Below are positions 2,976 to 57,836 of a stretch of DNA of 64,000 nucleotides, piece by piece. Below the pieces are notes generated by a model that searched no databases, had not been told where the DNA came from, and saw only the letters and a list, made by a program, of their open reading frames with translations. Origin of the DNA: Candidatus Micrarchaeota archaeon (lineage in GTDB: Archaea > Micrarchaeota > Micrarchaeia > Norongarragalinales > SBBD01); assembly GCA_043806595.1 (NCBI GenBank), contig JAZDGU010000004.1, positions 8,353-72,352 of the forward strand, written 5' to 3'. The stretch's first letter is position 1; each line of letters starts with the position of its first letter. The translations under genes were made by a program, and so were the position numbers.

Positions 2976-2977
2976 AC

Positions 2978-5287: not shown

Positions 5288-5302
5288 TTTCCAGCGGTCG
5301 AA

Positions 5303-5933: not shown

Positions 5934-5994
5934 GCCACAGGTGCCGGAAAGTGACATAATGCAAGCCGCACGATGCGGACACGCGGGTCGGAGA

Positions 5995-6720: not shown

Positions 6721-6730
6721 GGCGACTCCC

Positions 6731-7647: not shown

Positions 7648-10600
7648 CTAGAGTTCCACCTTCCGCGGGCGGTTGCGGGCGAGCGCGGTTCCGGCAAGCG
7701 CGGCGAGGCCGACGGGGGCGAGCCATAGGTAGTCCGGCTGGTTGGATGGAACCGAGCGGGGGACGAGGCGGGCCGAGATTTCGGATGCGGCAAGGTAGGC
7801 GTCGAGATAAAGCTCCTGCGAGATGCCGGCGTCGATTGCCTCGAGGGCTAGCCTGTCCTCCTCGCCGCCGAACTGGCCTACGCGGCTACGCGCGATTTCC
7901 GCCTGATCCAGCGCCATCTCCCGGATTTCCGAGTTGTATGAGTAAAGCGCCGAGGAAGCGCCTTGCAGGGATGCGAGGAAACTCGAGATTCTTGCCGCAG
8001 ACTGCCTGCCCAGCACATCCGGGTCCTTCTCCACAGCATTCGCAACCGCATCGAGCTGCTTGAGTGCAGCCGAAGCCGACTTGAATTCCGCTGCTGCGGC
8101 TGCGGCAAGCGCGGGCTTGCCCGCCCTGGAGGACGAGAAGAAGCGGGAATATTCCTCAATGGCGGTCGAAAAATCCGTTCGCGAGGCCGAGAAGTTCTCC
8201 AGCAGTTCGGAGACCGCCTGCGTCGAATCGGGTGCGCCTTCCGCGCCGGCCGGGTTCCATGCGGCCGCGGATGCCGGCGCGCCTACAGCGTCGGACGCGG
8301 GCGGGGGCGTCGCAAGGATTGCGGGCTGCGCGCCCTCCATCGACGCAAGGGACTGTTCGACCTCGTAGGCGGCCTCGAGCGCCTCCTCCCAACGCGAATC
8401 CAAGGCAAGGCTCTTGGCGTCCGAGAGTTTGGCCTGAAGCGGGGAATCCGGCACGGACGCAAGGCGTTCATCGAGCTCGGCGAGCTTGAGCCGGAACGCA
8501 TCCTCGGAGAAGCCCGCGCATTCGACGGACAGCGCGACGGAACGGGCCTCGCCCTCGCGCCAGGCACCTGAAGAAAGCCTCGCCCAGAGCATTCCTCCGG
8601 CATGCCCGACCGACGCCTTCAGTTCTGGCGGGAAGGACGCATTCGCGGAAAGTATTTCGCACGGCAGGGAGTCGTCGAACCGGAGTTCCGCGGAGCCGAG
8701 GTCCGAAAAAACGTTCCGGTAGTGTAGCGCGTAATCGAACCGTACGGGCAGGCCGTAAACGGGAACCGTTGTCCGGGAGGCGGAATGCTCGAACGGGTTT
8801 GCGGAGAAGAATGTGATTTCCAGATCGGTCCTGCCGGATGCAGCGTCGAGGACCAGCTCCAGCCAGCCTTTGGAGAACGTATCGCCGTAGGGCGCGGAAG
8901 ACGACACGGAATAATTCGAGCCCGGGGGAGCCCGAATCCGGAACAGCACGGGCAGGGGCAACGAGGAGTCGATTGAAACGGAAACCGCCTTCTCGGCGGA
9001 ATCCAGCCCAGCGGCAGACGCGCGCTCATTCATTGCGACAATCCGCGACGGCACCGCGGAGAAGGCGATGGCGACGGAATAATCCGATTGGATTACGCCG
9101 GAGAAGACCGCGCGCAGGCCGCCCTGACCCGATTCAACGGAAAGTCCGGGGGAGGCGTTCACAACGCGGGCGTCGGAGGCGTTGAACGGAAGGGCGACAT
9201 AAAACTTTTCCGGGGACTCGAAGGGCAAGGAATTCCCGAATGAGACCCGGGCTTCAACGTCGGCCCGCGCCCCAGGCTCGGTGGGGACAGCTGAAAATTG
9301 GACGAGCATGCTCCCCTCCAGCTCGCCCTGGATAAGCCGGCCTTTGTCCTTCTCCACGCCTGCGCGCACTGACGAGAGAAAAACCCGCATCGGCTTGAGG
9401 CGCCCGACGGCCTGCAAAGGGTCCAACTTGCCGCCGTGGAAAAACCCGGAATAAGCGGAAAGTGCATCGCGCTCGCCCGCCGAAAGGAACGCCTCCGCGG
9501 CCTCGGCGAATGCGAAGTCGGATTCGACGGAAGCGAACTCCTCGAACGCAGCGCGCCGCAGGCCTTCCTCGATGCCCAACAGTTCTCCGGAAAGAACCCT
9601 GACCGCGGCGTAATTGCCCTCGGAAGGCTCGGACAGGCGGCCGAGTGCGGACGCAACGGTCGACAGCCTCTGCCGGAACGCGGTGACGTCGATGCCGTCC
9701 TTCTCCGCGCCGGCGAGAAGGCCGCCGAGGCGCTGCGCCGCGCCTTCCGCCTCGGAATGGGCGAAGGCATATGCGTCCTGCGCGCCGCATGCCTCGCGGA
9801 TCCTGCCGAGGAAGACCAGCTGGGCCAGCAGGTGCGTGATCCTCGCGCCCGCCGAATTCTTCGACGCGTATTCGACGCGCATCTTCCCGAAATCGGAGAG
9901 CATCGACTGGAGCACGGCATACGATACCGGCTCGCCGCGCCTGCCTTCGGCAAGGAGCCTCACTTCCGCTTCTTCCCTCGCGGACCTTCCCTCGAGCAGC
10001 ATGCGCGCCGAGGACGCCGACTCCATGAGCTCGCCCCCGCCGTCCGAAATTCCCTCGAGGATGGCGAGTGCGCGCCGGCGCAGGACCACGGCGCGGCCGA
10101 GGTAGCCGCGGCTCCTCGCCGAAAGCAAATCATCCGCCTGCCTGGCAACCAGCTTTGCGAGCGACCCGTCCTCCTCGAGTGCGCGCACCCCGTCCTTGAA
10201 GGAGACCGGCCCGCTTGAGGGCTCGAAGATGCCGCCGTAGATGTACGGATACGCCTCCTCCGGGATGTCGGCAAGCTCCTCCTGCTTGATGCGGGCGAGC
10301 ACTGCATCCGCGGCCAGCCGTGCCACCTCGAGTGCCTCGCCGAGGCTCCGGCTCGCCTGCCACATGCCGGTTATGGATTCGTCGATGCGGCGGGCAAGCG
10401 AAAAAGTGCACGCCAGCACGGAATTCGGGCCGGCGAGGTCCTGCAGCACCGACAAATTGGCGATGTTCGCGAGGTAGTCCTCGCTGAGGGCGCGGAGCTT
10501 TGACGAAGACGAGACCATCCTCTGCCCGAGGGAGGTGCCGTCCGACGACGAGGAAAGGAGATGGCGCTCGGTCTCCCTGATTTCGTTGCGCACGCCCTGG

Positions 10601-11037
10601 GCGAAGTCATCGGACTCGTCCTGCAGGGCCTCGAACTCCGCGAACCGCGAGTCAAGCGCCTCGAGTCCGGCGCGGGCAGCCGAGGACGCCTCGTTGAGCG
10701 CGTCGACGGCCAGGTAGTGGCAGCCGAGGACGACGAGCGGCCGCAGGTGCGGGGCGATGTGGAACACATCCTGCACGGATGCGAGCAGCTTAGCGTGCCG
10801 GAGGTGCGTGCGGGCGGAATCGTAGTGCGCAAGCGCCTTGGCGAAACCCGCGCCTTGCAGCACGGGCAGCCCATCGAGGTCCATCGCCGACACGTAGCGG
10901 CAATTCGAGGACAGCGAGGCGAGCTTGACGAAGGAGACGTGCACTTCCGGAAGAAGGTAGTTGTATTCCGAAAGCGATGAGGCGCCCGCGAGGAACGCGA
11001 GCAAAAGCGAGGCAAAGACGGCACGCAAGCGAATCAC
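7648..11037 (-). CDS. large secreted alpha/beta protein, N-terminal signal peptide and C-terminal TM anchor with basic tail (1129 aa)
   Basis: Signal-like N-terminus (MIRLRAVFASLLLAFLAGASS). Ala/Leu/Glu/Arg-rich helical halves flank a Ser/Val-rich beta region. C-terminus LAPVGLAALAGTALARNRPRKVEL. No Walker A motif. Translationally coupled to the TadC-like gene. Confidence 0.6.
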   Translation of the reverse strand: MIRLRAVFASLLLAFLAGASSLSEYNYLLPEVHVSFVKLASLSSNCRYVSAMDLDGLPVLQGAGFAKALAHYDSARTHLRHAKLLASVQDVFHIAPHLRPLVVLGCHYLAVDALNEASSAARAGLEALDSRFAEFEALQDESDDFAQGVRNEIRETERHLLSSSSDGTSLGQRMVSSSSKLRALSEDYLANIANLSVLQDLAGPNSVLACTFSLARRIDESITGMWQASRSLGEALEVARLAADAVLARIKQEELADIPEEAYPYIYGGIFEPSSGPVSFKDGVRALEEDGSLAKLVARQADDLLSARSRGYLGRAVVLRRRALAILEGISDGGGELMESASSARMLLEGRSAREEAEVRLLAEGRRGEPVSYAVLQSMLSDFGKMRVEYASKNSAGARITHLLAQLVFLGRIREACGAQDAYAFAHSEAEGAAQRLGGLLAGAEKDGIDVTAFRQRLSTVASALGRLSEPSEGNYAAVRVLSGELLGIEEGLRRAAFEEFASVESDFAFAEAAEAFLSAGERDALSAYSGFFHGGKLDPLQAVGRLKPMRVFLSSVRAGVEKDKGRLIQGELEGSMLVQFSAVPTEPGARADVEARVSFGNSLPFESPEKFYVALPFNASDARVVNASPGLSVESGQGGLRAVFSGVIQSDYSVAIAFSAVPSRIVAMNERASAAGLDSAEKAVSVSIDSSLPLPVLFRIRAPPGSNYSVSSSAPYGDTFSKGWLELVLDAASGRTDLEITFFSANPFEHSASRTTVPVYGLPVRFDYALHYRNVFSDLGSAELRFDDSLPCEILSANASFPPELKASVGHAGGMLWARLSSGAWREGEARSVALSVECAGFSEDAFRLKLAELDERLASVPDSPLQAKLSDAKSLALDSRWEEALEAAYEVEQSLASMEGAQPAILATPPPASDAVGAPASAAAWNPAGAEGAPDSTQAVSELLENFSASRTDFSTAIEEYSRFFSSSRAGKPALAAAAAAEFKSASAALKQLDAVANAVEKDPDVLGRQSAARISSFLASLQGASSALYSYNSEIREMALDQAEIARSRVGQFGGEEDRLALEAIDAGISQELYLDAYLAASEISARLVPRSVPSNQPDYLWLAPVGLAALAGTALARNRPRKVEL

Positions 11038-13179: not shown

Positions 13180-14535
13180 ATGAAAGCCCCCGCGTTGCTT
13201 CTGCTTGCCGTCATGGCCTCGTTCGCCACCGCGCTGCCCGACCTGGTTTCCAGCGTCTATGCTTCCAACTCGATGCCATACGTTGGCGACACCGTCACAG
13301 TCTTTACCACTACCAGCAACATCGGATCCGATTGGGCGTCGAGCTCGGTCACAAGCCTGTTCCACCGCTACGGGGGGGCGTTATTCAATGTCCCGCCGCT
13401 GGCCCCTGGCGCCAACATCACCAATACGTCCTCCTTTACGTGCAATGAGACCGGATTCTTCAACTTCTCCTCCTTCGCCGACTTCTATTTCAGCGTGTCG
13501 GAGTCCAACGAGAACAACAACTATAATACCTACTCGATTTTCTGCCAGCCGGCGCAGAACCAGACGCTGCCCGACCTGACGGCATCGATCGACTTTAGCA
13601 ACCAAAACCCGAGGGTCGGCGACACCGTCACGGTCCACGTCAAGACGCAGAACATCGGCGACGGCGCGGCGGGCACCAGCTGGACGTACGCCTGGGACCC
13701 GACGGCGTACATCCCATACATGTTCTTCGTACCGGGGCTTGCGCCGGGACAGGCCGCGGACAACAACTTCACGTTCACCTGCCCGTGGGCGGGCAACTTC
13801 GGGTTCAACGCCTCCGCCGACTTCAGGCACAATGTCGACGAGTCGAACGAGGGCAACAACTACGCCTTCGCCAATCTCTACTGCGCGCCCATCGTCACCG
13901 TGACCCCGCCGCCGGGGCCGGTAATCACCAACGTGAGGGCGGAGAACGTCACCGCCGTCTCCGCGGCCATCAGGTGGTTCACCGACGTGCTCTCGGACAG
14001 CCGCGTGGAATACGGGCTCGCGAGCGGGCAATACGGGTTCGCCGCCGGCAACCCGAATTACGTGACGTACCACGTGGTGCCGCTCAACGGGCTTCGGCCG
14101 TTGACGAAGTACTTCTTCCGCGTGAGGAGCTGCAACCGGGGGGGCTGCACTTACAGCCCGGAGTCCTCCTTCAAGACGAAGACGATGGCGGTGGAAATCG
14201 GGAAGAGCGACACGGGCTATGCCCTGCTCGCGCAGATGCTCAACACCAACCTCAACACCGAGCTCAATGAGCTAAAAGGCGTCGACGCGTCCGAGGCCGC
14301 CAAGTACGAGCCTGCGGCGCGCAGCCTCAACGAGCTCGCGGCGGTCAACCCTCCGGCCTCCATCGGCAGGCTGCAGCAGCTCCGCGCGATAATCGACGAC
14401 GCGAGGAAGAAGGCGAGCGGCACGAGGACTGCGCTGCTTGCGGTCGCACTCCTCGGCATCGCGGTGATTTCCACGTGGTACTTCTGGGGCAAGCGCAGGA
14501 CAAGGATGAGGATGCACAAGAAGCGCCGGCGCTGA
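13180..14535 (+). CDS. secreted surface protein with two CARDB domains, one fibronectin-III-like domain and a C-terminal TM anchor
   Basis: Signal peptide MKAPALLLLAVMASFATA. Two repeats of PDL ... GDTVTV ... QNIG ... ESNExNN (CARDB). FN3-like VTNVRAENVTAVSAAIRWFTD ... YFFRVRS. C-terminal TM plus KRRTRMRMHKKRRR. Confidence 0.75.
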   Translation: MKAPALLLLAVMASFATALPDLVSSVYASNSMPYVGDTVTVFTTTSNIGSDWASSSVTSLFHRYGGALFNVPPLAPGANITNTSSFTCNETGFFNFSSFADFYFSVSESNENNNYNTYSIFCQPAQNQTLPDLTASIDFSNQNPRVGDTVTVHVKTQNIGDGAAGTSWTYAWDPTAYIPYMFFVPGLAPGQAADNNFTFTCPWAGNFGFNASADFRHNVDESNEGNNYAFANLYCAPIVTVTPPPGPVITNVRAENVTAVSAAIRWFTDVLSDSRVEYGLASGQYGFAAGNPNYVTYHVVPLNGLRPLTKYFFRVRSCNRGGCTYSPESSFKTKTMAVEIGKSDTGYALLAQMLNTNLNTELNELKGVDASEAAKYEPAARSLNELAAVNPPASIGRLQQLRAIIDDARKKASGTRTALLAVALLGIAVISTWYFWGKRRTRMRMHKKRRR

Positions 14536-35539: not shown

Positions 35540-36406
35540 ATGCACAACGCGGCGCGCGGCCAGGCCGCGCTGGAGTACGTCATACTGCTCGCAGGCATAC
35601 TCCTCATCATCTTCCTCACCATAGCGGTCATGCAGGCGCTGCAGGGGCGCTCAAAAGCTCAGATTGAGGAGAGCGTGGGGACGTGGAAAACGTTCGTCTG
35701 CCTCTCCAAGTACCTCGCCGAACCCGACAGCACGCTGCTCGCATACAAGCTCGACGGCCTGCAGGGCGGGACAACGCCGGACTCCAGCGCCAAGCACAAC
35801 GACGGCATCCTCAAGGGCGGCCTTCCCACGCTCGACTCGGCGAACTGCAAGTTCCCGCCGTGCCTTCACTTCGGCGCAGCCCCGGGCCACGTCGAGAGCA
35901 GCAAGCCCATCGAGGGCGTGGGGAGCATGACGTTTCTGGCTTGGATAAGATTCGACGACAGCGGGGACGGCAGCCAGCCCGTCATAGCGGCCATCGCCAA
36001 CTCGTTCGACCTCTCGTTCACGCAAGTCGATTACATAGTCTGGTCGATGGACGACCCTCCCCCGCCGGCCATGGAAGCCGCGTTCCACTTCTCGGTCTGG
36101 ACCGGCCTCTTCAACCCCGTAATAGTGGATCCGGAGGACATGACCCTCGAGGGATACCACCACATCGCCGCGACGTACAACGAAACCACAGGCACGGCGA
36201 ACGTCTACATCGACGGCAGGCTCAATGCCACTGTAAGCGGCCCTGCGAACAAGCCGATGTGGCACTCCAATCTGCCGCTGTCAGTGGGCAACAAGCAGAA
36301 CGACGCGTCACAGGCGTTCAAGGGCAACATCGACCAGGTCGAGTTCTACAGCAGGGAGCTGACCGCGGAGGAAATCATGCAGGAGATAAGGTGCCAGCCC
36401 GCCTGA
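35540..36406 (+). CDS. class III signal peptide (pilin-like) protein with LamG/concanavalin-like lectin domain
   Basis: N-terminus MHNAARGQAALEYVILLAGILLIIFLTIAV is prepilin-like. C-terminal FKGNIDQVEFYSRELTAEEI matches the Laminin_G_3 signature. TATA TTTATTAA about 25 nt upstream suggests a leaderless start (35525 is an alternative). Confidence 0.65.
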   Translation: MHNAARGQAALEYVILLAGILLIIFLTIAVMQALQGRSKAQIEESVGTWKTFVCLSKYLAEPDSTLLAYKLDGLQGGTTPDSSAKHNDGILKGGLPTLDSANCKFPPCLHFGAAPGHVESSKPIEGVGSMTFLAWIRFDDSGDGSQPVIAAIANSFDLSFTQVDYIVWSMDDPPPPAMEAAFHFSVWTGLFNPVIVDPEDMTLEGYHHIAATYNETTGTANVYIDGRLNATVSGPANKPMWHSNLPLSVGNKQNDASQAFKGNIDQVEFYSRELTAEEIMQEIRCQPA

Positions 36407-36887
36407 ACCTGCGCTTCATCCTGCGAAGGCCGGCAAGGATCTTCGCGTTGTGCGAGCCCCGCCAGTAGGCCTTGCCGCACGAGCCGCAGACGAGGAATTC
36501 CGCCGCATGAAGCCAGGACTTCCTCGGCACTTTGCCTTCCAACGATTTTTTCGGCGTTTTCTTCAGGCGGCCGCTGCACTCGGGACAGACAGACGTGCTC
36601 GGCACCGAATCCTCCCGGATTGCGGAAAGGTCGAGGCCGGCGGCCCTGCAGAACTCCAGCACCTGGCCGTCGAGGTCCGAGGAACGCAGGAGCAGGCAGC
36701 GGCAGTAGCTCGATGATTTTACAGAGAGAGCGACGTCGCGGGTCACGAGGACAGCCCTCTCCCCGATGCACTGGCGGATTATGTCGTCGTCGGATTGCGA
36801 GCGCGGGGGCGAGACACGAACGCCGAGCATGCGCAGCCAGCGCGCGAGCCTCGCGAGCATCACGTCGGCGACGAAATTCATGCGCAT
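36375..36887 (-). CDS. Mut7-C RNase domain (DUF82) protein with C-terminal zinc ribbon
   Basis: 170 aa. N-terminus MRMNFVADVMLARLARWLRMLGV matches the Mut7-C/DUF82 start. C-terminal CPECS ... CGSCG. 32-nt convergent overlap with the LamG gene. Confidence 0.65.
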   Translation of the reverse strand: MRMNFVADVMLARLARWLRMLGVRVSPPRSQSDDDIIRQCIGERAVLVTRDVALSVKSSSYCRCLLLRSSDLDGQVLEFCRAAGLDLSAIREDSVPSTSVCPECSGRLKKTPKKSLEGKVPRKSWLHAAEFLVCGSCGKAYWRGSHNAKILAGLRRMKRRFRRAGTLSPA

Positions 36888-36951
36888 GAATGGCTCTCCG
36901 CGGGGAGCGGTTATAAAGGCTTATATACGCCGCGAGGGAAAGGCAGTCATG

Positions 36952-39051
36952 CCGCCCAAGCAGAGGAAGGCGAAGGAGGAGAAGTTCGAGTCGCTCTACA
37001 CGCAGAAGTCGCAGGAATACGTCGAGGAGGAGAAGGAGCAGAGGAGGGAAAGCTTCTTCGTCGGGCTGACGCGGTTCATGTACTCCCGCAACAGGTCCGG
37101 CGGCGCGGGCGCTAAGTTCTCGCCGGAGCAGAAGGCGCTATTCGACTTCCTCAACTGGAACATCCCCGCGGAGGAGTACTACGCTACGGCGAAGGCGCTG
37201 CTGACCTACGGGCTGGGCGTCGGCGTGGTGTTCGGCGCGGCGTTCTATTTCTACCTCGGGCCGGAGCTCACGACGGACACGATGATGATATACCTCGGAA
37301 GCCTACTGTGTCTGCTCCTGCCGGTGACGCCGAGCATTTTCTACCAGTATTATCCGGGGATGGCGGCGGAGCGCGAGAGGATGCTTTCGCTCGCGTACAT
37401 CCCGGAGATCGTAAACTACCTCGTGATGAGCCTGAGGCTCAACCCCAACCTCGAGAAGGCCGTCGAGTTCGCGGCGAACCACGGCCGGGGGAAGATAGCG
37501 GACGAGCTCAAGGAGCTCGTATGGGAGGTGCAGATAGGGACGTTCCTCAGCGTGGAGGAGGGCCTGGACGCGATGGCTTACCGATGGGGGGGCTACAGCG
37601 ACGACTTCAAGCACGCGCTCATGATCATCCGCTCGTCCTCGCTGGAGACGGACCACGTGCGAAGGGTAGAGCTGCTGGAGAAGGCCTCGTTGGACGTGCT
37701 CGAGGGCAGCAAGGAGAAGATGGACATCTACGCGCGCAACTTGCACCAGCCGACGGTGTTCCTCTACTACTTCGGGATACTCCTGCCGCTCATGCTCGCC
37801 ATTATCCTGCCCATCGGGTCGGCGTTCGTGAAAGGCCTGCCGATCGCGCAGGCGGGGTTCATATTCCTCATATACTGCGTACTCCTGCCCGCGGGCATCT
37901 ACATCTACGGGAACAGCATCCTCGGGGGCAGGCCGCCGACTTACATCCCGCCGCAAATCACCGACCGCTACCCCGGGCTGCCGAGAAGGGGCAACATGCG
38001 GTTCCTCGGCATGGAGTTCTCGTACACCCTCGCGGCCGTGGTCGTCTTCGCCGCGGTGCTGCTCGCGGGCAACTTCGCGGACAACCTCACGCTCCAGCAG
38101 ATTCCGACGTACCTGCAGGACGAGTACCTCGCCTCGACGCCGCACGTGGAGCTGCTCGGGCTCAAGCTGTACGTGTTCTCGATACTCGCGGTGGTGCTTG
38201 CGGTAAGCTTCGCCTTCTCGGTCTACCTCTGGGGGAAGTTCGGCGAGCGGAAGAAGGTGCAGGACGAGATACGCGAGATGGAGAGGGAGTTCAAGGACGC
38301 GACGTACGTGCTCGCGTCGAGGCTGGGGGAGAACAAGCCTATGGAGGACGCGCTCGCCTACGCCATCGACTTCCTCCCGAAGAGCAAGGTCGGGGAGAAG
38401 TTCTTCAGGCGCGTGCTTGAGAACGTCACTTTGCTCGGCATGACGCTGGAAGCGGCCGCGTTCGACAGGACGTACGGCGCGCTGCGCTACATCCCCTCGC
38501 AGATCATCCGCAGCGGCACGAGGCTCATGGTGGACAGCGTGGAGCTCGGGGTCAACGTAGCCGCCAAGTCGCTCATGAGCCTCAGCTTCCAGATGAGGAA
38601 CGCCCAGAAGATAGACGAGACGCTGCGCAGGCTGCTCGCGGACATCACGACGCTGCTGAGCACCATGTCCACGTTCGTCGTGCCGGTAGTCATCGCCGTA
38701 GTCAGCTCGCTTCAGACCATCATCATAAACTCGTTCGCGGGCATGAGCCTCGGGGATTCTCTGGGGAACACCAACGTCCAGCTCGGCGGCCTGAGTTTCA
38801 AGGGCTTCTCGTCGCTGCTGGACACCTCCGGCATAAGGGAGACCACGGCGTCGCCCGGGGAGTTCCTCCTGATAATGGGGCTGTACGTGGTCGAGGTCGT
38901 CATACTGCTGACGTACTTCAACTCGCAGGTCGAGGACAGCAACAACAAGCTGCACACCTACACGAGCATCGCCAAGACGCTGCCCATCGCGGCGATAATC
39001 TTCGCCGTCACGGCGTTCCTCGCGAGCAGCACCCTCTCCGGATTCGGATGA
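36952..39051 (+). CDS. FlaJ/TadC-like polytopic membrane protein with two T2SS-F (GspF) domains
   Basis: 699 aa from the ATG preceded by GAGGGAAAGG. Two cytoplasmic GspF-like modules each followed by TM triplets. The ORF track starts at 36766. Confidence 0.7.
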   Translation, partial: PPKQRKAKEEKFESLYTQKSQEYVEEEKEQRRESFFVGLTRFMYSRNRSGGAGAKFSPEQKALFDFLNWNIPAEEYYATAKALLTYGLGVGVVFGAAFYFYLGPELTTDTMMIYLGSLLCLLLPVTPSIFYQYYPGMAAERERMLSLAYIPEIVNYLVMSLRLNPNLEKAVEFAANHGRGKIADELKELVWEVQIGTFLSVEEGLDAMAYRWGGYSDDFKHALMIIRSSSLETDHVRRVELLEKASLDVLEGSKEKMDIYARNLHQPTVFLYYFGILLPLMLAIILPIGSAFVKGLPIAQAGFIFLIYCVLLPAGIYIYGNSILGGRPPTYIPPQITDRYPGLPRRGNMRFLGMEFSYTLAAVVVFAAVLLAGNFADNLTLQQIPTYLQDEYLASTPHVELLGLKLYVFSILAVVLAVSFAFSVYLWGKFGERKKVQDEIREMEREFKDATYVLASRLGENKPMEDALAYAIDFLPKSKVGEKFFRRVLENVTLLGMTLEAAAFDRTYGALRYIPSQIIRSGTRLMVDSVELGVNVAAKSLMSLSFQMRNAQKIDETLRRLLADITTLLSTMSTFVVPVVIAVVSSLQTIIINSFAGMSLGDSLGNTNVQLGGLSFKGFSSLLDTSGIRETTASPGEFLLIMGLYVVEVVILLTYFNSQVEDSNNKLHTYTSIAKTLPIAAIIFAVTAFLASSTLSGFG

Positions 39052-50061: not shown

Positions 50062-50319
50062 GTGGAAACCGTCGTGAGGTTCGTTGGAGTTCCGGAATTC
50101 GTCTTGGACAAGCTGGTTTCGATGGGCTATTTCGCGACCAAGACCGAGGCCTTGAGGGCCGGGGTGCTCGAACTCGGAAAGGAATACAAGATACTCGGCG
50201 AGGCGGGGAAGATGGAGGAGGAACTCGTCGCACGCAAGCTTGAAAGGGAGGAGAAGGAGCTCAAGCGTTCCGGCGGCAAATACCTTTCCGAGAAGGAGGC
50301 GCTGTCGAAATACCGGTGA
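50062..50319 (+). CDS. RHH (CopG-like) antitoxin (paralog A)
   Basis: 85 aa, GTG start. METVVRFVGVPEFVLDKLVSMGYFATKTEALRAGVLELGKEY is paralogous to the 59730 gene. Confidence 0.6.
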   Translation: METVVRFVGVPEFVLDKLVSMGYFATKTEALRAGVLELGKEYKILGEAGKMEEELVARKLEREEKELKRSGGKYLSEKEALSKYR

Positions 50320-50325
50320 TGCGAG

Positions 50326-50595
50326 TTGGAGCTTAAGCCGTTCAGGCTGGAATTCAACCCCGGCTGGGACAGGCATTTCAGGAAATTCGACCGCGCGGTG
50401 CAGGAAAGGATTCTCGCGAAACTGGAACAGATGAAACAGCCACTGCCGGCCCGGGGAATGCACGCGAGCCGGTACAAGATCGAGGAAGCGGGCGGCTACC
50501 GCATTGCGTACATCCAAGATGATGAGAAAAGGGAAAAGCGGATTCACTTCGTCGGCGACCACAAACAATACGAAGAATGGTATTCGTCGAAATAG
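50326..50595 (+). CDS. relE: RelE/ParE-family toxin (paralog A)
   Basis: 89 aa. YRIAYIQDDEKREKRIHFVGDHKQYEEWY matches the paralog at 59981 (YRIIYTCKEGVKRIYFVGDHKEYERWY). Confidence 0.7.
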   Translation: MELKPFRLEFNPGWDRHFRKFDRAVQERILAKLEQMKQPLPARGMHASRYKIEEAGGYRIAYIQDDEKREKRIHFVGDHKQYEEWYSSK

Positions 50596-51252: not shown

Positions 51253-51642
51253 ATGCACGAGAAACAGCTCGCCGCGGTGTGCGCCGCGGCCGCAGTCGCG
51301 GGAATACTCCTTATCGCCGCCTATTCGAAGGCGCTGGCAGCGCAGCCGATGGGCATCGCGGAGATTTCCGGGGCCGACATCGGAAAAGCCTTGAAGGTCA
51401 AGGGCGCGCTGGCCTCGATCTATTCCAGAAACGGCAACTGGTTCATCTCCGTCTGCAACAAGGGCTGCATCAAGGCGTTCATTCCCGCGTCCGTCGCAAG
51501 GGGCATGCCCGGAAAGGGAACGGACCTCAAGGCTTTGAGGAAGGGCGCGTGGATTTCCTTCTCCGGAGCCGTCCAGGAATACAAGGGCGCGCTCGAAATC
51601 GCGGCATACGACGAATACTGTGTCGAGGTGCACAGGCCGTGA
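51253..51642 (+). CDS. membrane-anchored OB-fold-like protein
   Basis: 129 aa. N-terminal TM, then KVKGALASIYSRNGNWFISVCNKG ... resembling OB-fold anticodon-binding-like domains. Confidence 0.45.
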   Translation: MHEKQLAAVCAAAAVAGILLIAAYSKALAAQPMGIAEISGADIGKALKVKGALASIYSRNGNWFISVCNKGCIKAFIPASVARGMPGKGTDLKALRKGAWISFSGAVQEYKGALEIAAYDEYCVEVHRP

Positions 51643-52793
51643 TGGAGTTCCTCGCAGGCGCACTGCTGGGCATGCTCGGCGTGCTGCCGTTCGTGCACAC
51701 CAACCTGATACTGCAGGTGGCGAAGCCCTTCCTCGCGCAGGGCGCGGGCCTCGTCGCGTTCGCCTCCGCGTTGTCGTTCTCGCACCTCGTATTCGAGACG
51801 CTGCCGGCGCTGTTCCTGTTCATCCCGACGGAAAACCTTTCTGCCAGCGTTCTGCCGTTCCAGCGCATGGCACTGCAGGGAAGGGGGGCGGAGGCGCTCA
51901 ACAGGATCATCGCGGCCACGCTTCTCGCGCTCTGCGTCGCGGCTGCAGTGCTTCCCCTGCAGGCCGCGGCGCTGCCGGCAATCAAGGAGGCCGTTGGGGA
52001 AAACCTGAAGTGGGCGCTGCTCGCCGTGCTCGCACTCTACTTCACGTCGATGCGCAAATGGAAGGAAAGGCTCGGGTCGCTGGCGGTGTTCCTGCTTTCC
52101 GGGGCGCTCGGAGTCACGGCGTTCGCCGCGCCATGGGTGCGGGAGCCCTTGTTCCCGCTGCTCACCGGCCTCTTCGCCGTGCCGGCGATACTGCTCGCCC
52201 GCGGCAGCGCGGTCAAGGACGGAGGCGCCGCCGGGGAAACCCGGCTCGACGTGCGGCTGGTGCTCGCGGGAGTAGCCGTCGGCTCCGTCTCATCCCTTTT
52301 GCCCGGCCTGACCGTCGCCGTGCTGCTCTGCATATGCCTGCTCGCGGTCAAGGAGGACTACGGCGCGTTCATGTCGCTTGCCCCGAGCATAGCCGCATCC
52401 AAGACGCTCTACGACCTCGCCTCTCCGTTCACCGTCGGGAATGCGAGGAGCATGGCAGGCGCGATCATCGCCGGGGCGCCTGGCCCGGAGGCGCAGACGC
52501 TGGCAATTGCGTCGGCTTCCGCGCTCGCCTCGGCGGCGCTGGCCTCCGCGGTACTGCTCGCGACGTATAGGAAAATCCTCGCGAAAACCGGCGGCGACTA
52601 CTCCGGATTCAAGAAGTGGCTCCTGGCGGTGCTGGCGCTGATTGCGCTCGGCCTCAACGGCTGGCAGGGAATCCTGCTGATGACCACCGCGGCGCTTGTC
52701 GGCGCGCTGCCGCTCCTGCTCGGGCTGCGCAGGAGCGCCGCCGTCGGGGCGCTCGTCGTGCCCGCGCTCGCTTACCACTTCGGCATGGCGTGA
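51643..52793 (+). CDS. TctA/DUF112 family membrane protein
   Basis: 383 aa from MEFLAGALLGMLGVLPF, 10+ TM segments with LPGLT-type motifs. Start overlaps the upstream stop (GTGATGG). Confidence 0.6.
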
Positions 52794-52958
52794 CTGAAAC
52801 CGGCCCATAAATCGTTGTGCGCATAAACCATTTGGCGACAAGCGATGCAGAGTATGGTTAGCCGGCATGCTTCAACTGACCTTGCCGCGGTTAACCGTTT
52901 TATAGGACGCTCCCGACTTGACCCCGCGTTTTAAAAACCGGGGAAAGGTAGTAGGAGC

Positions 52959-53396
52959 ATGGCCAAGAGGGCGCAGGTGGGCGTCGAGATGTTCCTCGTG
53001 TTCAGCATAGCCCTCCTCGTGCTGTTCTGGTTCTCCAACTACCTCAACGCGTTCTCGTCGTCGGCCCAGAAAATCGGGGCGAACGAGCAGCAGAAGCTCG
53101 CGCTCAAGGACCTCGCGAAACTGGCGAACGACGTCTGCGTCATGCGCGCCAACCTGACCGTCAAGGCGCCGTGCATAACCGTGGGGAGCGAGAGCATGCT
53201 TTACCGGCTCTACGGCACCCTGCCGGCGAACGTGATCCGCATGAACAACACGTTCACGAACCATTCGAGCGCGGAGAAGGTCAACTGCAACGTCGACGTC
53301 ATGGTGCCGGACTACGTGCGGTGCACGTCGAGGGAAATGCTGTGCATGTACAAGTCCGGGGACGACGTGGTCATCACGAGGGGGGCATGCACTTGA
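52959..53396 (+). CDS. class III signal peptide pilin-like protein 1
   Basis: 145 aa. MAKRAQVGVEMFLVFSIALLVLFWF. TATA GTTTTAAAAACC 25 nt upstream. Cys-rich mature domain. Confidence 0.55.
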   Translation: MAKRAQVGVEMFLVFSIALLVLFWFSNYLNAFSSSAQKIGANEQQKLALKDLAKLANDVCVMRANLTVKAPCITVGSESMLYRLYGTLPANVIRMNNTFTNHSSAEKVNCNVDVMVPDYVRCTSREMLCMYKSGDDVVITRGACT

Positions 53397-53719
53397 GGGC
53401 GCAGGTTTTCAGCATAGACTTCGTCGTCGCGACGACCATACTCCTGCTCGGGCTCGGCATAGCCCTGCAGACCGTCGACCTCGTCCAGAAGGACGCCGAC
53501 ACCTACGCGAACATGCAGACCAACAACGCCGAAACCGTCGCGGAAGGCCTGATGCGTTCCGTAGAGGGGTTCGCCAACCACTCGCCGTACTGCTTCAGGT
53601 ACAGCAACGGCACCAGCACGTGCGGCGGCTTCTCCTGCGCGTTCAACACGTTCACCGCGACGAGGCTCGTCAACTGCGAGGGCGCGGTGTGCTCGATGGA
53701 GGTAAGGACCTGTGAATAA
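53387..53719 (+). CDS. class III signal peptide pilin-like protein 2
   Basis: 110 aa. MHLRAQVFSIDFVVATTILLLGLGIAL. Start overlaps the upstream stop. The ORF track merges it into 53171..53719. Confidence 0.5.
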   Translation: MHLRAQVFSIDFVVATTILLLGLGIALQTVDLVQKDADTYANMQTNNAETVAEGLMRSVEGFANHSPYCFRYSNGTSTCGGFSCAFNTFTATRLVNCEGAVCSMEVRTCE

Positions 53720-54710
53720 GGGATTCGTGTTCACCGCCGACGCGCTGTTCGCGCTCACCGCCATCTCCGTGCTGGCGACCTCGTACGTCATCATCCACTC
53801 CATCCAGTACCAGTCGCAGAAGTACGCCAGCCTCGAGAACCAGGGGAGGGACTACCTGCGGCTGGTGTACCGCGAGGGCTTCGCGAACTTCACGAACGAG
53901 TCCTTCCACGCACTGACGGGCCACAACTGCTACGGGTGCATCCAGAGTCCCTTCTGGGGCTTCGAGACGGAAGCGGACCTTGAGGACTGGACAATCATTT
54001 ATGGCTCTTGGCAGCTAAAAGACATAGGCGCAGGAGTCTCCCATATTGTCCTAATAGAGGCAGGTACCCCCGGCTTTTCAAATTCGACCATTACGACCGG
54101 CAAATACTACTGGAGCAACTACTCGGTCAGCGCCAAGGTTGCCATGGGAACCACAGGATCCACGGATATAATGGGAATAGGCATTTATTCCAACAGCACC
54201 GGCGGCAGGTACGTTTGCGCTCTTGATTTCAGAACCGGCACATACTACATTGCCGTCTACAAGGCGTTCAACTCGACCAGTCCGTATGTTCTGCCGGCGG
54301 ATACCGCCGTCGCAAGAACGCCACTGCCGGTAGGATATGACTCGCATGTGTTCCACGACCTCAACGTCTCCGCATTCGGCGGGGTAGTCAACTGCTCCAC
54401 ATACGATAATACGAACACAATCAGCGCCGTTTACTACGACCCCAACCCCCTCGACAGCGGCAAGGTGACCCTGGGACGTGGAGAATACCAAAGCGCGGCA
54501 CAATACGATAACATTACCATCAATTTCGTCGCCGGGTACCCGCCGAGGGACGTGCCGTTCGTGATGCGCAGCTCGATGCTCACCTACCCGTGGGAGTGCG
54601 GGTGCAGCCCTTACGAGCCGAACTGCTCGATTAGCAACGCTTCGCCGTGCCTGCGCTACCAGGAGCCGCTGGAAGCGGACTGGGTGAAGCACGAGGTCTG
54701 GGTGAACTGA
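53712..54710 (+). CDS. pilin-like secreted protein 3 with large N-glycosylation-sequon-rich domain
   Basis: 332 aa. MNKGFVFTADALFALTAISVLA, then more than 15 NxS/T sequons. 8-nt overlap upstream, ATGA overlap downstream. Confidence 0.55.
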   Translation: MNKGFVFTADALFALTAISVLATSYVIIHSIQYQSQKYASLENQGRDYLRLVYREGFANFTNESFHALTGHNCYGCIQSPFWGFETEADLEDWTIIYGSWQLKDIGAGVSHIVLIEAGTPGFSNSTITTGKYYWSNYSVSAKVAMGTTGSTDIMGIGIYSNSTGGRYVCALDFRTGTYYIAVYKAFNSTSPYVLPADTAVARTPLPVGYDSHVFHDLNVSAFGGVVNCSTYDNTNTISAVYYDPNPLDSGKVTLGRGEYQSAAQYDNITINFVAGYPPRDVPFVMRSSMLTYPWECGCSPYEPNCSISNASPCLRYQEPLEADWVKHEVWVN

Positions 54711-55321
54711 TGAGAAAAGCTTTCTTCTCGTTCGTCGTGATCGCCGCGGTGTCGGTGGCGCTCATGCTGCTCGCGGCCTACGCCAAGTCGTGGTACGACT
54801 ACAGGAACACCGCGAACTACGACCTCGAGGTGCGGCTCGTCGACCAGAGGGCGAACGACAGCGAGACTTTCATCAGCGGCATGCTCGACGACATCGTGGT
54901 TGACTCCGCTTACAGCACGTGGGGCTGCAAACCGTCGGATACCGGACCGGCGGGGCCGTACAGCCTCTGCACCGAGGCGAGCAACTCGAGGATGCCGGCA
55001 TACTGGAGGGCAGTCGCCAACCTCTCGACCGCAGGCGTGACGTTTTACAACAATACCGAGTATTATTTCAGATGCGGATGGCTCTCTTGGGTCAACAAAA
55101 CCGCCGCACCAAAATACAACTATACCGAATACATCCTCAATCTCACAGTAAACTATACGGTCAACACATCCCATGCCGCGGTCAACCACACGTTGCTGAT
55201 GATAAACAAGCGGTTCGATGTCAATAGCAGCAACATGGCCAACGGCAAGTACATCAATATAACGATTTTCAACGCCGCGTTCGGGAGGGCGTATTCCTAT
55301 TACGTCGACTGCACGGTCTGA
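54710..55321 (+). CDS. signal-anchored extracellular protein 4 (sequon-rich)
   Basis: 203 aa from MRKAFFSFVVIAAVSVALMLLAAY. Many NxT/S. The ORF track starts at 54647. Confidence 0.5.
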   Translation: MRKAFFSFVVIAAVSVALMLLAAYAKSWYDYRNTANYDLEVRLVDQRANDSETFISGMLDDIVVDSAYSTWGCKPSDTGPAGPYSLCTEASNSRMPAYWRAVANLSTAGVTFYNNTEYYFRCGWLSWVNKTAAPKYNYTEYILNLTVNYTVNTSHAAVNHTLLMINKRFDVNSSNMANGKYINITIFNAAFGRAYSYYVDCTV

Positions 55322-55411
55322 CGCGCTCCCGAGGAAGGGGCCGCAAAGCGCTGGAGAGGCAAAGAGTTATAAAAAGCCGCGAAGCCTAAGATACGGGGGA
55401 GGGGTAAAGTC

Positions 55412-55993
55412 ATGCGGCAGGCCGTCATACTAATCGGGCTTCTCGTGGCGGCAATCGCCATATATGCCGCGATCCCCAAGCCGGAGCTCTCGCCCTACGG
55501 CACGGACCAGGTCAAGCAGTTCGTGCTCGAGGACGCGAGGAACGACTACCCGTCGGCGCAGGTCGAGGTGCTCTCCGCCGGGAACAAGGACGGGAAGTGG
55601 CTCGTCGACGTCAAGATAGCGAGGGACGCGCACTCCAAGTGCCCGAAGATAGTCATGCGCGCCTACACGTTCCCGCCCATACTGTTCCGCGAGGAGGTCT
55701 ACAACGACAGGTGCAGTGCCGGAGGTTCGCTGCTGGTATACCCCGAGGAGGCGATACTGGCCTCTGCGCAGACTTCGCAGGTGAAGGCGCTGCCCGAGGA
55801 CGCGCAAGGGAACGCGCGCATGTACACCGCGGAGGAAATCAGGGCGCTGCAGCAGTGCGTCGCGTGCTCGCCGTTCGAGGAGTTCTCGAAGGCGCTGCCT
55901 GCTGAAAGGCTGTGGGCCGTCCAATGGGACTACGCGGGCAAGACTCTGTACGTCGCGCTGGACATCTACGGAAAGGCGGTCGCGACAAGCTAG
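55412..55993 (+). CDS. signal-anchored extracellular protein 5
   Basis: 193 aa. MRQAVILIGLLVAAIAIYAAIP. SD GGGGGAGGGG. Last gene of the pilin-like operon. Confidence 0.5.
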   Translation: MRQAVILIGLLVAAIAIYAAIPKPELSPYGTDQVKQFVLEDARNDYPSAQVEVLSAGNKDGKWLVDVKIARDAHSKCPKIVMRAYTFPPILFREEVYNDRCSAGGSLLVYPEEAILASAQTSQVKALPEDAQGNARMYTAEEIRALQQCVACSPFEEFSKALPAERLWAVQWDYAGKTLYVALDIYGKAVATS

Positions 55994-56514
55994 CCTATTG
56001 ACACGAGCGGCCGGCACTTCCTGCAGAACTCTGCAGTCTTGCGGTCGAGGAACATCAGGTTGCGCGCCTGGTTCATGACGCAGTTCCTGTTGCTGCAGTG
56101 CGGTATGCCCATCAGGTGCCCGAGCTGGTGCACTACCTTCTTGTAGAGCCTGCGCCGGAAGAGCTCGTCGTCGTGCCTGCCCTGCATGGCGGGGTCGAAG
56201 GCGTGGTAGCTGACGATGGCCGTGCGGCCTACGTTCTCGGCGACGCCGAACACCTGTTTGCGCCTGCCGGCGAACATGTCGTAGGGGAAGAGGCCGATGA
56301 CGAACGTCCCGCGCTCCTTCGCGAACAGCCCCGAGAGCCATTCCAGCAGCTTCTCCGCGTCCCACTGGCCGCGCGGCTCCGTGAAGTGCTCGTAGTCCGC
56401 GGGCAGGGGGCGCTTGAGGAGCACTACTTCCGCCTTGAACGCGCCGGAGAGCGTCGTCTTGAGGAAGGAGGCGTCCCTGCAGGGAAGCTCGACCTCGGCT
56501 AGGATTATGCGCAT
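55990..56514 (-). CDS. amzA: archaemetzincin zinc metalloprotease
   Basis: 174 aa from MRIILAEV. HQLGHLMGIPHCSNRNCVM plus C-terminal CRKC matches the archaemetzincin HExxHxxGxxH/CPxC signature. The ORF track extends to 56868. Confidence 0.75.
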   Translation of the reverse strand: MRIILAEVELPCRDASFLKTTLSGAFKAEVVLLKRPLPADYEHFTEPRGQWDAEKLLEWLSGLFAKERGTFVIGLFPYDMFAGRRKQVFGVAENVGRTAIVSYHAFDPAMQGRHDDELFRRRLYKKVVHQLGHLMGIPHCSNRNCVMNQARNLMFLDRKTAEFCRKCRPLVSIG

Positions 56515-56551
56515 GGGAAAGGCTAGGCGGCAGAGGTTTTTATTGGCTTGC

Positions 56552-56585
56552 GGCGCGGGCTCAGACGGCGAGCATGAGGAGGCCG
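56552..56585 (+). repeat. 34-bp perfect direct repeat, upstream copy (pseudo 3' end of small membrane protein gene) flanking RHH-PIN module 3
   Basis: TCAGACGGCGAGCATGAGGAGGCCGATGAACGCG is identical to 57348..57381. Confidence 0.8.
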
Positions 56586-56671
56586 ATGAACGCGGGGAAG
56601 AGACCAGTAAGAAATGAAAAGTATTAAAAATATTAATAGTGTGAATTTTATCAACCGAGGAGGTGATTTGG

Positions 56672-56908
56672 ATGGCGCAGATGCTTTCCGTGCCGCTGCC
56701 GGACGACCTGAAGAAGGACCTCGACAGGCACAAGGAAATTAAGTGGGTGGAGATCGCGAGGCAGGCGCTCAGGGACAAGGTGGAGGCGCTTGACGAGATG
56801 GACGAATTCTTCGCAAAAAGCAGCCTGACGGCGGAGGACGTGGAAAAGCATGCGAGAGCCGTCAGCAAGAACGTGTGGAAGAGGCATAAGAAGGAACTGG
56901 GGCTTTAG
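56672..56908 (+). CDS. RHH-type antitoxin (paralog 3 of 3)
   Basis: 78 aa. MAQMLSVPLPDDLKKDLD. SD GGAGGTGA 6 nt upstream. The ORF track starts at 56663. Confidence 0.6.
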   Translation: MAQMLSVPLPDDLKKDLDRHKEIKWVEIARQALRDKVEALDEMDEFFAKSSLTAEDVEKHARAVSKNVWKRHKKELGL

Positions 56909-57334
56909 ATGCCGATCGAACTAGCAGTGGATGCCAACGTGCTGTTCTCGGCGATGCTCGCGGACGGCACGACCAGGCGGCTCATACTCGACCGGAGGCT
57001 CAGGCTCTGCGCGCCGTCTTATTTGATGGAGGAAATGCTGAGGCACATGCGGGGCGACGACAAGCTCGCAAGAAAGCTGAACCGGACAAAAGAGGAGGCG
57101 GCGATGCAGCTGCAGAGCCTCGGGAGGCACATCGAGGTTGTGCCGCTCGAGGAGTACGGGGCCAGCATACCGGAGGTTCTGAAAGACTGCCCGGATCCCT
57201 TCGATGCCGAGTATCTTGCAGTCGCAAAACGGCGCAGCATCCCATTGTGGACGAACGACAGGAGACTCAAGAACCAGGCGGCCGTTGAAGTGCTGAACAC
57301 GCGCGAGGTCCTCGAACTGCTGGGACGGAAATGA
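56909..57334 (+). CDS. PIN-domain toxin (paralog 3 of 3)
   Basis: 141 aa. MPIELAVDANVLFSAML ... WTNDRRL. ATG abuts the antitoxin stop. Confidence 0.75.
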   Translation: MPIELAVDANVLFSAMLADGTTRRLILDRRLRLCAPSYLMEEMLRHMRGDDKLARKLNRTKEEAAMQLQSLGRHIEVVPLEEYGASIPEVLKDCPDPFDAEYLAVAKRRSIPLWTNDRRLKNQAAVEVLNTREVLELLGRK

Positions 57335-57545: not shown

Positions 57546-57836
57546 CTACTTGATGAAGTCGTCGAGCAGCTCCACCGCGCGCCTGATGCTCTGCGCGATC
57601 TGCTTCTCGCTCTTTGCGCCGCTGCAGATTACCTTGCCGTTCTTGAACAGCAAAAGCGTGGTTCCGATCTCCTTGAGGCGCATGATGGCGCCCGGGAACT
57701 GCTCGGGCTCGTACTCGACGTTGTCGACTTCCATGGCGATGTTGAACAGGTCGAGCTCGACGTTGAGGTTCGCCGAGGCGACGATGTTCTCCACCTTGAA
57801 GCCCATGTTTATGTGCGGGCGTTTTTTCTTGACCAT
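57546..57836 (-). CDS. tbp: single-repeat TATA-box-binding-protein homolog (half-size TBP, 96 aa)
   Basis: ENIVASANLNVELDLFNIA ... EYEPEQFPGAIMRL ... LLLFKNGKVICSGAKSEKQI matches one TBP repeat (closest to the C-terminal repeat). Clean stop. No second repeat is encoded on either side. AT-rich promoter with TTTAAATA and a leaderless start. Confidence 0.7.
   Translation of the reverse strand: MVKKKRPHINMGFKVENIVASANLNVELDLFNIAMEVDNVEYEPEQFPGAIMRLKEIGTTLLLFKNGKVICSGAKSEKQIAQSIRRAVELLDDFIK

Follow-up and report, generated by a model that had tools for sequence, protein, structure and literature searches.

Four pilin-like genes form a conserved neighborhood with an OB-fold/TctA-like gene pair in Micrarchaeota

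A 64,000-nt stretch of a Micrarchaeota contig, all of which was analyzed and which is called the window here, contains five consecutive open reading frames (ORFs), named g1 to g5, that directly follow a gene for a single-span membrane protein with an OB fold and a gene for a polytopic membrane protein of the TctA family. All five ORFs are real, lie on the forward strand at the positions given in a first-pass annotation of this DNA, and show the high GC at third codon positions (GC3) expected of coding sequence; their orthologs are conserved in genomes of 38-62% GC. The first-pass annotation described g1 to g5 as one operon and missed the pair directly upstream, which is part of the same conserved cluster. 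The genes g1-g4 belong to a conserved neighborhood of seven genes, in the order OB, TctA, g1, g2, g3, g4, g5, with the following features in the window.

51253-51642, forward strand: single-transmembrane (TM) OB-fold protein, at the head of the conserved cluster; 1-nt overlap of its stop with the TctA start
51642-52793, forward strand: TctA-like polytopic membrane protein, 383 aa, Pfam TctA PF01970
52898-52937, forward strand: putative promoter region of g1-g4, two TATA-like boxes read from the sequence
52959-53396, forward strand: g1, 145 aa, pilin-like with a predicted canonical EppA-type class III signal, 6 Cys
53387-53719, forward strand: g2, 110 aa, small pilin-like protein, 6 Cys
53712-54710, forward strand: g3, 332 aa, GTG start, pilin-like, 11 sequons, 8 Cys
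53943-54536, forward strand: lineage-specific insertion in g3, ~200 aa, roughly residues 78-275, beta-rich and glycosylation-rich
54710-55321, forward strand: g4, 203 aa, pilin-like, 11 sequons
55368-55376, forward strand: putative TATA-like box of g5 (TTATAAAAA), in the 90-nt g4-g5 spacer
55412-55993, forward strand: g5, 193 aa, predicted membrane-anchored extracytoplasmic protein with two PepSY/cystatin-like domains

The layout is four genes plus one rather than a chain of five. The chaining described in the first-pass annotation holds for g1-g4, whose reading frames overlap by 10 nt (g1/g2), 8 nt (g2/g3) and 1 nt (g3/g4, with the g4 ATG on the g3 stop), and fails for g5, which is set off by a spacer of 90 nt and has its own TATA-like box. 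A Shine-Dalgarno-like GAGG motif precedes each internal start. What had been described as one strong TATA box ahead of the operon resolves into two TATA-like boxes 5′ of g1 (TTTTATAGG at 52898-52906 and TTTAAAAA at 52930-52937), followed by an AGGAG motif at 52953-52957 just before the gene. No T-run terminator is found in the g4-g5 spacer, and read-through from g4 into g5 is therefore possible. In the window TctA and g1 are 165 nt apart, and the TATA boxes lie within this gap; in most of the related loci the distance is 27-48 nt.

Each of the proteins encoded by g1-g4 has one N-terminal hydrophobic segment and no other in a Kyte-Doolittle scan, behind a basic leader of 2-9 residues that ends in a [KR][GA] site in every ortholog examined (8-9 per family). 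The position of this [KR][GA]↓[Q/F/L] site (the arrow marks the predicted point of cleavage) is invariant although the orthologs share just 25-50% identity. The g1 N-terminus, MAKRA↓QVGVEMF, has Gln at +1 and Glu at +5 and follows the motif [KR][GA]↓Q.[SGA][IVL]E[MLF]F, of which [KR][GA]Q.[SGA][IVL]E is shared by nine aligned orthologs; the g1 of a further related locus (L018), read apart from the alignment, fits as well (MRGQVSLEFF). In g2 (MHLRA↓QVFSIDF) Gln is again at +1 and an Asp lies at +6, and nine orthologs share the motif R[GA]↓Q[VLF][FL]..D. The N-terminus of g3, MNKG↓FVFTADALFAL, has Phe at +1, and nine orthologs conserve both the motif [KR][GA]↓F[IVL][FL][TS].DALFAL and a Cys-rich C-terminus; a low-confidence structural model places a helix at residues 9-55. 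The g4 N-terminus, MRKA↓FFSFVVI, has no acidic residue at +5 or +6, and its motif [KR][GA]↓[FL][FLMY] abuts the only hydrophobic segment in all eight aligned orthologs and in the ortholog from L003 (KKGLLSF). The extracytoplasmic parts of g1-g4 contain even numbers of Cys (6, 6, 8 and 4, respectively), and the mature globular parts of g1 and g2 comprise ~60-110 residues.

Quantitative comparison with known pilins sets g1 apart from the other three. A hidden Markov model (HMM) was built from 26 canonical pilin N-termini from related loci with g1-g4 left out, and among 1100 window ORFs g1 was its top match outside the training set (E 0.0067); the g1 family aligned with the canonical pilin N-terminal profile with a probability of 93% in hhalign (E 2.4e-7). 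Searches of g1-g5 and their orthologs against Pfam and NCBIfam gave little beyond two sets of sub-threshold matches, one between g1 and the Class_IIIsignal family PF04021 (14.6 bits, E 0.033, gathering score 23.7), the other between the g2 N-terminus and the haloarchaeal families DUF7288 and DUF7287 (E 2.4e-4 and 2.7e-3). On the profile tests, g1 alone is predicted to be canonical. The assignment of g2-g4 to class III is based on the invariant position of the site, on the N-terminus being the most conserved part of each protein, on the even numbers of Cys, and on synteny with genes for Peptidase_A24, T2SSE and T2SSF described below. The class III-like N-termini that the first-pass annotation recognized in g1-g3 thus stand on a profile match for g1 and on the conserved [KR][GA] site, with no profile score, for g2 and g3. 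Its separate treatment of g4 as merely signal-anchored does not hold, as g4 shares the class III-like site [KR][GA]↓[FL].

The closest known counterparts of these N-termini are substrates of EppA, the prepilin peptidase that processes the Epd pilins of Methanococcus maripaludis. The substrate signature was defined experimentally as RAQ/KGQ, with Gln at +1 required and Glu at +5 typical, and the M. maripaludis substrates carry the sites RAQI (EpdA), KGQV (EpdB and EpdC), KGQL (EpdD) and KGQI (EpdE) (PMC4371748). The RA↓QV sites of g1 and g2 match these. Both elements of the signature are present in g1, g2 has Gln at +1 with Asp at +6, and g3 and g4 have Phe or Leu at +1, making this a mixed module. 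The resemblance to Epd pili, which comprise minor pilins EpdA-D and the major pilin EpdE, includes the RAQ/KGQ motif with Gln at +1 and Glu at +5, the encoding of several minor pilins together with the peptidase, a tiny major pilin that lacks a globular domain, and the presence in related Micrarchaeota loci of the genes by which system 1 is defined, one for the ATPase and two for platform proteins. Filaments of this system have been reported in DPANN archaea (bioRxiv 10.64898/2026.04.22.720090). The Micrarchaeota genes differ in the +1 residue of g3 and g4 and in being joined to OB-TctA, whereas by their locus tags the Methanococcus pilus genes and OB-TctA lie at separate loci; g1-g4 are likened to EpdA-D by the N-terminus alone.

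The OB-fold protein has one hydrophobic segment, at residues 6-24. The window copy matches the Pfam tRNA_anti-codon OB fold weakly (E 0.0084), six of nine orthologs match it (best E 2.4e-7), and a profile search of the Protein Data Bank (PDB) returns the OB domain of AspRS (E 4.8e-4); two of the nine orthologs also give weak matches to DUF4131, the N-terminal OB fold of ComEC (E 0.014). The TctA-like protein matches PF01970 over its full length (E 1.3e-14) and has ~10-11 hydrophobic segments. The neighbors of the pair in the window are Hsp20 and g1, with no TctB or TctC gene adjacent; archaea lack TctB and TctC (PMC10133366). The OB gene is syntenic in L002, L004-L006, L015, L016 and L018, TctA-like orthologs adjoin g1-g5 in 10 loci, and the OB-TctA pairing recurs at three loci of distant homologs (L007, L009 and L012), in one of which (L009) T2SSE and two T2SSF genes lie 3.5 kb from the pair. 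The TctA family was also searched with a profile built from 12 TctA-like sequences, and no named methanogen proteins were among its matches. Three proteins of 690-706 aa (P0018, P0019 and P0023) combine a TctA-like permease with C-terminal SNase (thermonuclease) and Excalibur domains, and at L012 (6280-9121) a TM protein with two OB folds is encoded directly upstream of a TctA-SNase fusion. These fusions tie the family to extracellular DNA processing.

Genetic evidence on such a pair comes from M. maripaludis, in which adjacent genes for a single-TM OB-fold protein and a TctA-like protein are each essential for natural transformation, as established with complemented deletions (Fonseca et al., PMC10133366). 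In Methanoculleus thermophilus, too, the TctA homolog is essential, and the study puts it forward as the transporter of DNA in archaea; the same M. maripaludis transformation screen also hit Epd pilus genes, eppA and a thermonuclease, and Epd pili are required for transformation in that species (PMC10133366). The window pair resembles MMJJ_13020 and MMJJ_13030 of M. maripaludis JJ (the latter with 11 TM segments) in that a single-TM OB-fold gene lies directly upstream of a TctA-family gene of ~380-400 aa with no TctB or TctC. It differs in its linked pilin genes, none of which are reported in the published work, and even in Methanococcus the biochemical function of the pair is unproven.

When species-representative genomes were scanned with a g3 alignment, five Micrarchaeota loci emerged, in which gene order was determined by tblastn and ORF inspection, and more distant loci were found through homologs of TctA or g5. 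The five loci from the g3 scan are colinear (OB, TctA, g1, g2, g3, g4, g5), with OB undetected in L003. Failure to co-occur in related genomes had been set beforehand as what would speak against the grouping of these genes, and TctA, g1-g4 and g5 are linked in 10 of 11 loci, from genomes of 38-62% GC. At L011 TctA is followed by g1-g5, including a short g3 missed by the gene caller. At L015 a single strand encodes T2SSE, two T2SSF proteins, three small pilins, Peptidase_A24, two pilin-like proteins, a multi-TM protein, OB, TctA, g1-g4 and g5, and at L018, in a genome of 38% GC, two pilins, Peptidase_A24 with Arc_PepC and two pilin-like genes precede OB, TctA, g1-g4 and g5. The order is permuted at L016, which reads T2SSF (at the contig edge), pilins, Peptidase_A24, two pilin-like genes, a gene for a secreted protein, g1-g4, OB-TctA and g5. 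Peptidase_A24 lies in the same co-directional cluster at L003, L006, L015, L016 and L018 (confirmed with Pfam in L003 and L006), and the ATPase and two platform genes are in the cluster at one locus (L015). The linkage is thus both tight and ancient, and its persistence through the L016 rearrangement and over a range of 38-62% GC speaks for functional coupling. It is well supported that g1-g4 are pilin-like and linked to filament machinery.

Additional genes accompany the cluster in the relatives. Between the Peptidase_A24 and OB genes, several Micrarchaeota encode extra pilin-like proteins of ~148 aa (VKGQLSIEFF) and ~119 aa (MR[AS]Q.SVE[YF]). The 173-aa multi-TM protein of L015 has a counterpart in L003; neither it nor the two extra pilin-like genes have a counterpart in the window. 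The secreted protein that lies between the pilin-like genes and g1 at L016 (4412-5632) is Cys-rich, has 406 aa, and gives a weak, sub-threshold Pfam match to ComP_DUS, the Neisseria DNA-uptake-sequence receptor pilin (E 0.0097), which is probably due to chance.

4087-5452 (L015), 6082-7512 (L003), 2609-3082 and 7175-7531 (L006), 5866-6638 (L018), extra pilin-like genes

Taken together, the pilin-like N-termini, the linkage to filament machinery and the conserved adjacency to OB-TctA lead us to propose, with a probability of roughly 0.55, that g1-g4 encode the minor pilins of a type IV filament of the Epd type ("system 1") and that this module is coupled to a candidate channel for DNA import in archaea, the role in DNA uptake being carried over from the Methanococcus genetics by analogy. 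A prepilin peptidase encoded elsewhere in the genome would cut after the conserved [KR][GA], and the four mature subunits would then assemble by way of their N-terminal helices, forming a priming or tip complex that may sit on a filament or short pseudopilus composed of a small major pilin and driven by an ATPase and platform proteins, with g4, which lacks an acidic residue at +5 or +6, as a possible capping subunit by analogy with GspK. The glycosylated surface of g3 and g4, including the ~200-aa module of g3 in this lineage, could capture extracellular DNA, which would pass to the membrane-anchored OB-fold receptor and be imported by the TctA-like permease; g5 would be a conserved accessory.

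In bacteria, the four minor pilins of type II secretion, type IV pili and Com systems form complexes of this kind. Like the genes for the GspH-I-J-K and FimU-PilV-W-X tip complexes of type II secretion and type IVa pili, g1-g4 are four consecutive, translationally coupled pilin-like genes, and the absence of the conserved acidic residue from g4 and the large inserted domain of g3 each recall a feature of GspK. Homology with these complexes is not detectable, however.

Several observations weigh against the proposal. The pilin HMM and Class_IIIsignal return no match to g2-g4, and PF04021 remains below threshold even for g1. The sole model of a putative pilin fold, an AlphaFold2 prediction of g3 from a three-sequence alignment, is unusable (pLDDT 39). 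No DNA-binding domain was detected in g1-g5. Neither a T2SSE ATPase nor a prepilin peptidase was found in the window by regular-expression searches for Walker A and A24 GxGD motifs or by tblastn with A24 and T2SSE proteins from related loci. The window pair is likened to MMJJ_13020/MMJJ_13030 by architecture and adjacency, not by sequence comparison, and the Methanococcus study did not assay piliation of the OB and TctA mutants, so that the pair could serve a function in the pilus instead of DNA transport. TctA homologs of Halorubrum (L013) and of L014 have no OB or pilin neighbors, and L012, a marine metagenome scaffold from Tara Oceans of 71% GC, may be bacterial. Finally, a distant g5 homolog in a genome of 33% GC (L017, 10001-10627) has housekeeping genes for neighbors and neither TctA nor pilin genes within 10 kb, and is the sole exception to the linkage.

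The alternative that survives best, and that we nevertheless consider unlikely, is that g1-g4 form the minor-pilin or adhesin module of an adhesive pilus for attachment to surfaces or hosts, with OB and TctA as pilus accessories or unrelated neighbors. The evidence for pilin-like proteins and for linkage to filament genes serves this explanation equally. Micrarchaeota are episymbionts, Epd pili mediate adhesion in M. maripaludis (PMC4371748; bioRxiv 10.64898/2026.04.22.720090), and another pilin in the window carries a ConA-like lectin domain. The sequons of g3 and g4 and the gain of a beta-rich module by g3 are typical of adhesin diversification. The first-pass annotation had reported dense sequons in the later genes, and they are enriched in g3 (11 observed versus 3.1 expected from shuffles, P<0.0005) and g4 (11 versus 3.0, P<0.0005); the numbers in g1 (3) and g2 (2) are not significant, and g5 contains none. 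The g3 module is present in the long proteins (317-332 aa) of the window, L001, L002 and P0003, versus short forms of 117-140 aa with the same N- and C-termini in L003, L005, L006, L011, L015 and L016, and of 125 aa in L018, indicating that the window lineage carries an insertion of ~200 aa. An adhesive pilus leaves unexplained the retention of a nucleic-acid-type OB fold and a permease with the pilins through the permutation at L016 and across genomes of 38-62% GC, as well as the fusion of TctA to extracellular nucleases. The transformation study leaves room for it, as defects in piliation and in transport were not told apart in the OB and TctA mutants.

For the g3 insertion, the single Pfam match is non-significant (Colicin_D, E 0.18), and a PDB profile search reached an E of just ~1.1. 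A ConA/LamG-like fold was suspected and is not supported, as hhalign of the insertion against the window's own Laminin_G_3 pilin gave a probability of 0.1%. At L004 (3697-4076) the g3 ortholog is split by a frameshift into a 58-aa N-terminal ORF and a C-terminal part in another frame, reflecting either an assembly error or a pseudogene.

A bindosome-like system for solute uptake, in which pilin-anchored g1-g5 bind a small substrate (a carboxylate, for example) and pass it to TctA in place of TctB/TctC, is improbable and much less likely than an adhesive pilus. It would account for the membership of TctA in a tricarboxylate-type permease family in archaea that lack TctB and TctC (PMC10133366), and binding proteins that carry class III signals are widespread among archaea (bioRxiv 10.64898/2026.04.22.720090). 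The Sulfolobus bindosome (Bas), composed of sugar-binding proteins with class III signals, likewise has class III-type N-termini encoded beside a transporter. However, Pfam and NCBIfam reveal no substrate-binding-protein domain in g1-g5, the globular parts of g1 and g2 are small for this purpose, the adjacent extracytoplasmic protein has a nucleic-acid-type OB fold, and the TctA-nuclease fusions and Methanococcus genetics point to DNA. The locus also differs from the bindosome in having no substrate-binding fold and no ABC transporter or BasEF-type genes adjacent, its transporter being TctA-like. Of the first-pass suggestion of a minor-pilin, pseudopilin or bindosome-like set, the pilin-like character of g1-g4 and their linkage to filament genes thus stand, and the bindosome lacks support. 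That g1-g5 are ordinary Sec-dependent, signal-anchored or secreted glycoproteins that resemble class III proteins by chance is also much less likely than an adhesive pilus and very improbable, since the lack of a Pfam call on g2-g4, the sub-threshold score of g1 and the plain signal anchor or Sec signal apparent in g5 are set against a cleavage site fixed in position in 8-9 orthologs per family at 25-50% identity, the 93% probability match of g1 to the pilin N-terminal profile, and the Peptidase_A24, T2SSE and T2SSF genes in the clusters of relatives.

The gene g5, which closes the cluster in 10 loci, stands apart from the pilin-like module. Its N-terminus lacks the class III motif and resembles a plain signal anchor or Sec signal. 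A phmmer search of 1.84 billion cluster representatives gave 72 matches, nearly all of 180-215 aa, and the named family members are Micrarchaeota or Norongarragalinales. Prediction of the individual mature domains, a check proposed in the first-pass annotation, was informative here: in contrast to the unusable g3 model (pLDDT 39), an AlphaFold2 model of g5 with 51 homologs is confident (pLDDT 96.3, pTM 0.84) and is not that of a pilin, showing a TM helix at residues 2-20 followed by two alpha+beta domains. Foldseek matches of this model in the PDB are all weak, with PepSY proteins best (4exr, CD1622, E 0.0095; 5boi, the C-terminal domain of YpeB; 4k90, a fungalysin propeptide; E up to ~0.025); they also include cystatin-fold designs, and global TM-scores are low. 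The 4EXR structure is also the top HHpred match of a tandem-PepSY protein (PMC9988556). Like the YpeB C-terminal domain (5BOI) and CD1622 (4EXR), the g5 model has two helix-on-antiparallel-sheet units behind an N-terminal anchor; it differs in Foldseek E values of only ~0.01-0.02, in the absence of a Pfam PepSY match from any of seven orthologs, and in having no conserved protease partner nearby. On the basis of the model, g5 is probably a membrane-anchored tandem PepSY/cystatin-like protein and not a pilin. The first-pass view of g5 as pilin-like and sequon-rich is not borne out, given the lack of a class III motif, the absence of sequons and the tandem alpha+beta fold in the model.

An archaemetzincin (Peptidase_M54) gene at 55990-56868 on the reverse strand converges on g5, with ends that overlap by 4 nt. 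A PepSY-type protease-inhibitor link between g5 and this enzyme was considered and rejected, as the adjacency of M54 is confined to the window and L002.

Returning to the proposed coupling of g1-g4 to a DNA-import channel, the layout can be compared with that of bacterial competence systems. These comprise the ComG pseudopilus (ComGC with the minor pilins ComGD-GG), the DNA receptor ComEA, and the channel ComEC, which has an OB fold and a nuclease domain. Four minor pilins, a DNA-binding receptor anchored in the membrane and a polytopic channel would make up the same arrangement in both, as an analogy only, and the DUF4131 OB fold and nuclease domain of ComEC find parallels in the OB protein and the TctA-SNase fusions. 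There is no sequence homology, however; TctA belongs to another transporter family, and the OB protein is not a helix-hairpin-helix protein like ComEA. To our knowledge archaea lack ComEC, and for the passage of DNA across the membrane in archaeal natural transformation the OB-fold/TctA-like pair from the Methanococcus transposon screen provides the only candidates. The union of this pair by synteny with four minor pilins, and in relatives also with a peptidase, pilins, an ATPase and platform genes, gives independent comparative-genomic support to a pathway from pilus to channel.

We extend this proposal only tentatively to the possibility that one compact Micrarchaeota cluster encodes a complete archaeal DNA-uptake machine, consisting of an EppA-like peptidase, pilins, an OB receptor, a TctA channel, g1-g4 and g5. 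If true, natural competence in archaea would gain its first genomic parts list, analogous and not homologous to ComG/ComEA/ComEC, and in reduced symbionts such a machine might serve nucleotide scavenging as much as gene transfer. OB, TctA, g1-g4 and g5 constitute a compact and defined set of parts open to testing, and g1-g5 define five Micrarchaeota-specific protein families that lack a Pfam model. Should the link to DNA be wrong, what is left is a clearly bounded set of minor pilins from a DPANN type IV filament, a useful but ordinary finding. What is new here is a minor-pilin module that is physically coupled to a candidate archaeal DNA-import pair. A 2016 census of archaeal type IV pili makes no mention of an OB fold, TctA or DPANN, a text search of a 2026 survey of archaeal type IV filaments listed no occurrence of TctA, and targeted literature searches found no published description of linkage between pilins, OB and TctA.

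Filament genes also occur elsewhere in the window. The first-pass statement that no assembly machinery is present in cis holds within ~10 kb of the operon and does not extend to the window as a whole, which contains two T2SSF-family platform genes, 14 and 46 kb from the operon and each beside a class III pilin gene. Neither was matched when the window was searched by tblastn with T2SSF proteins from related loci.

6731-6835, reverse strand: tiny pilin of 34 aa, MKA↓QAAIEYLLL (MKAQAAIEYLLL); Class_IIIsignal 24.7 bits, above the cut-off of 23.7
6832-7647, reverse strand: T2SSF platform protein, 271 aa, directly upstream of the tiny pilin; E 1.6e-6, 28.5 bits versus a cut-off of 25.2
35540-36406, forward strand: class III pilin (AARG↓QAALEY) with Laminin_G_3 (ConA-like lectin); Laminin_G_3 E 8.1e-21, Class_IIIsignal E 1.3e-4
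36766-39051, forward strand: membrane protein of 761 aa, encoded 3′ of the lectin pilin; T2SSF-like domain at E 3.2e-5 and 24.3 bits, slightly short of the 25.2 cut-off

The 34-aa pilin resembles a 44-aa pilin encoded after the two T2SSF genes of L015 and, like EpdE or Flp, has no globular domain, and is thus a candidate for the major subunit of an Epd/Tad-like filament. Its locus (6731-11037, reverse strand) also encodes a 1129-aa surface protein with an N-terminal signal, a C-terminal TM anchor and no Pfam match. The second locus (35540-39051, forward strand) appears to pair a modular lectin pilin with a platform gene of its own.

Among the other genes in the window, an ORF of 96 aa on the reverse strand (57546-57836) encodes a single, full TBP repeat (Pfam TBP, E 2.8e-28), in comparison with the two repeats and ~180 aa of canonical archaeal TBP; no second repeat lies adjacent to it, where the flanking ORFs encode small membrane proteins. 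Two small ORFs of 85 and 89 aa upstream of Hsp20 (50062-50595, forward strand) have no Pfam match. A PIN_2 toxin gene (56909-57334, forward strand) follows an 81-aa partner ORF in the region 56663-57334, and a secreted protein of 451 aa (13180-14535, forward strand) combines CARDB and purple-acid-phosphatase N-terminal (Fn3-like) domains with 8 sequons.

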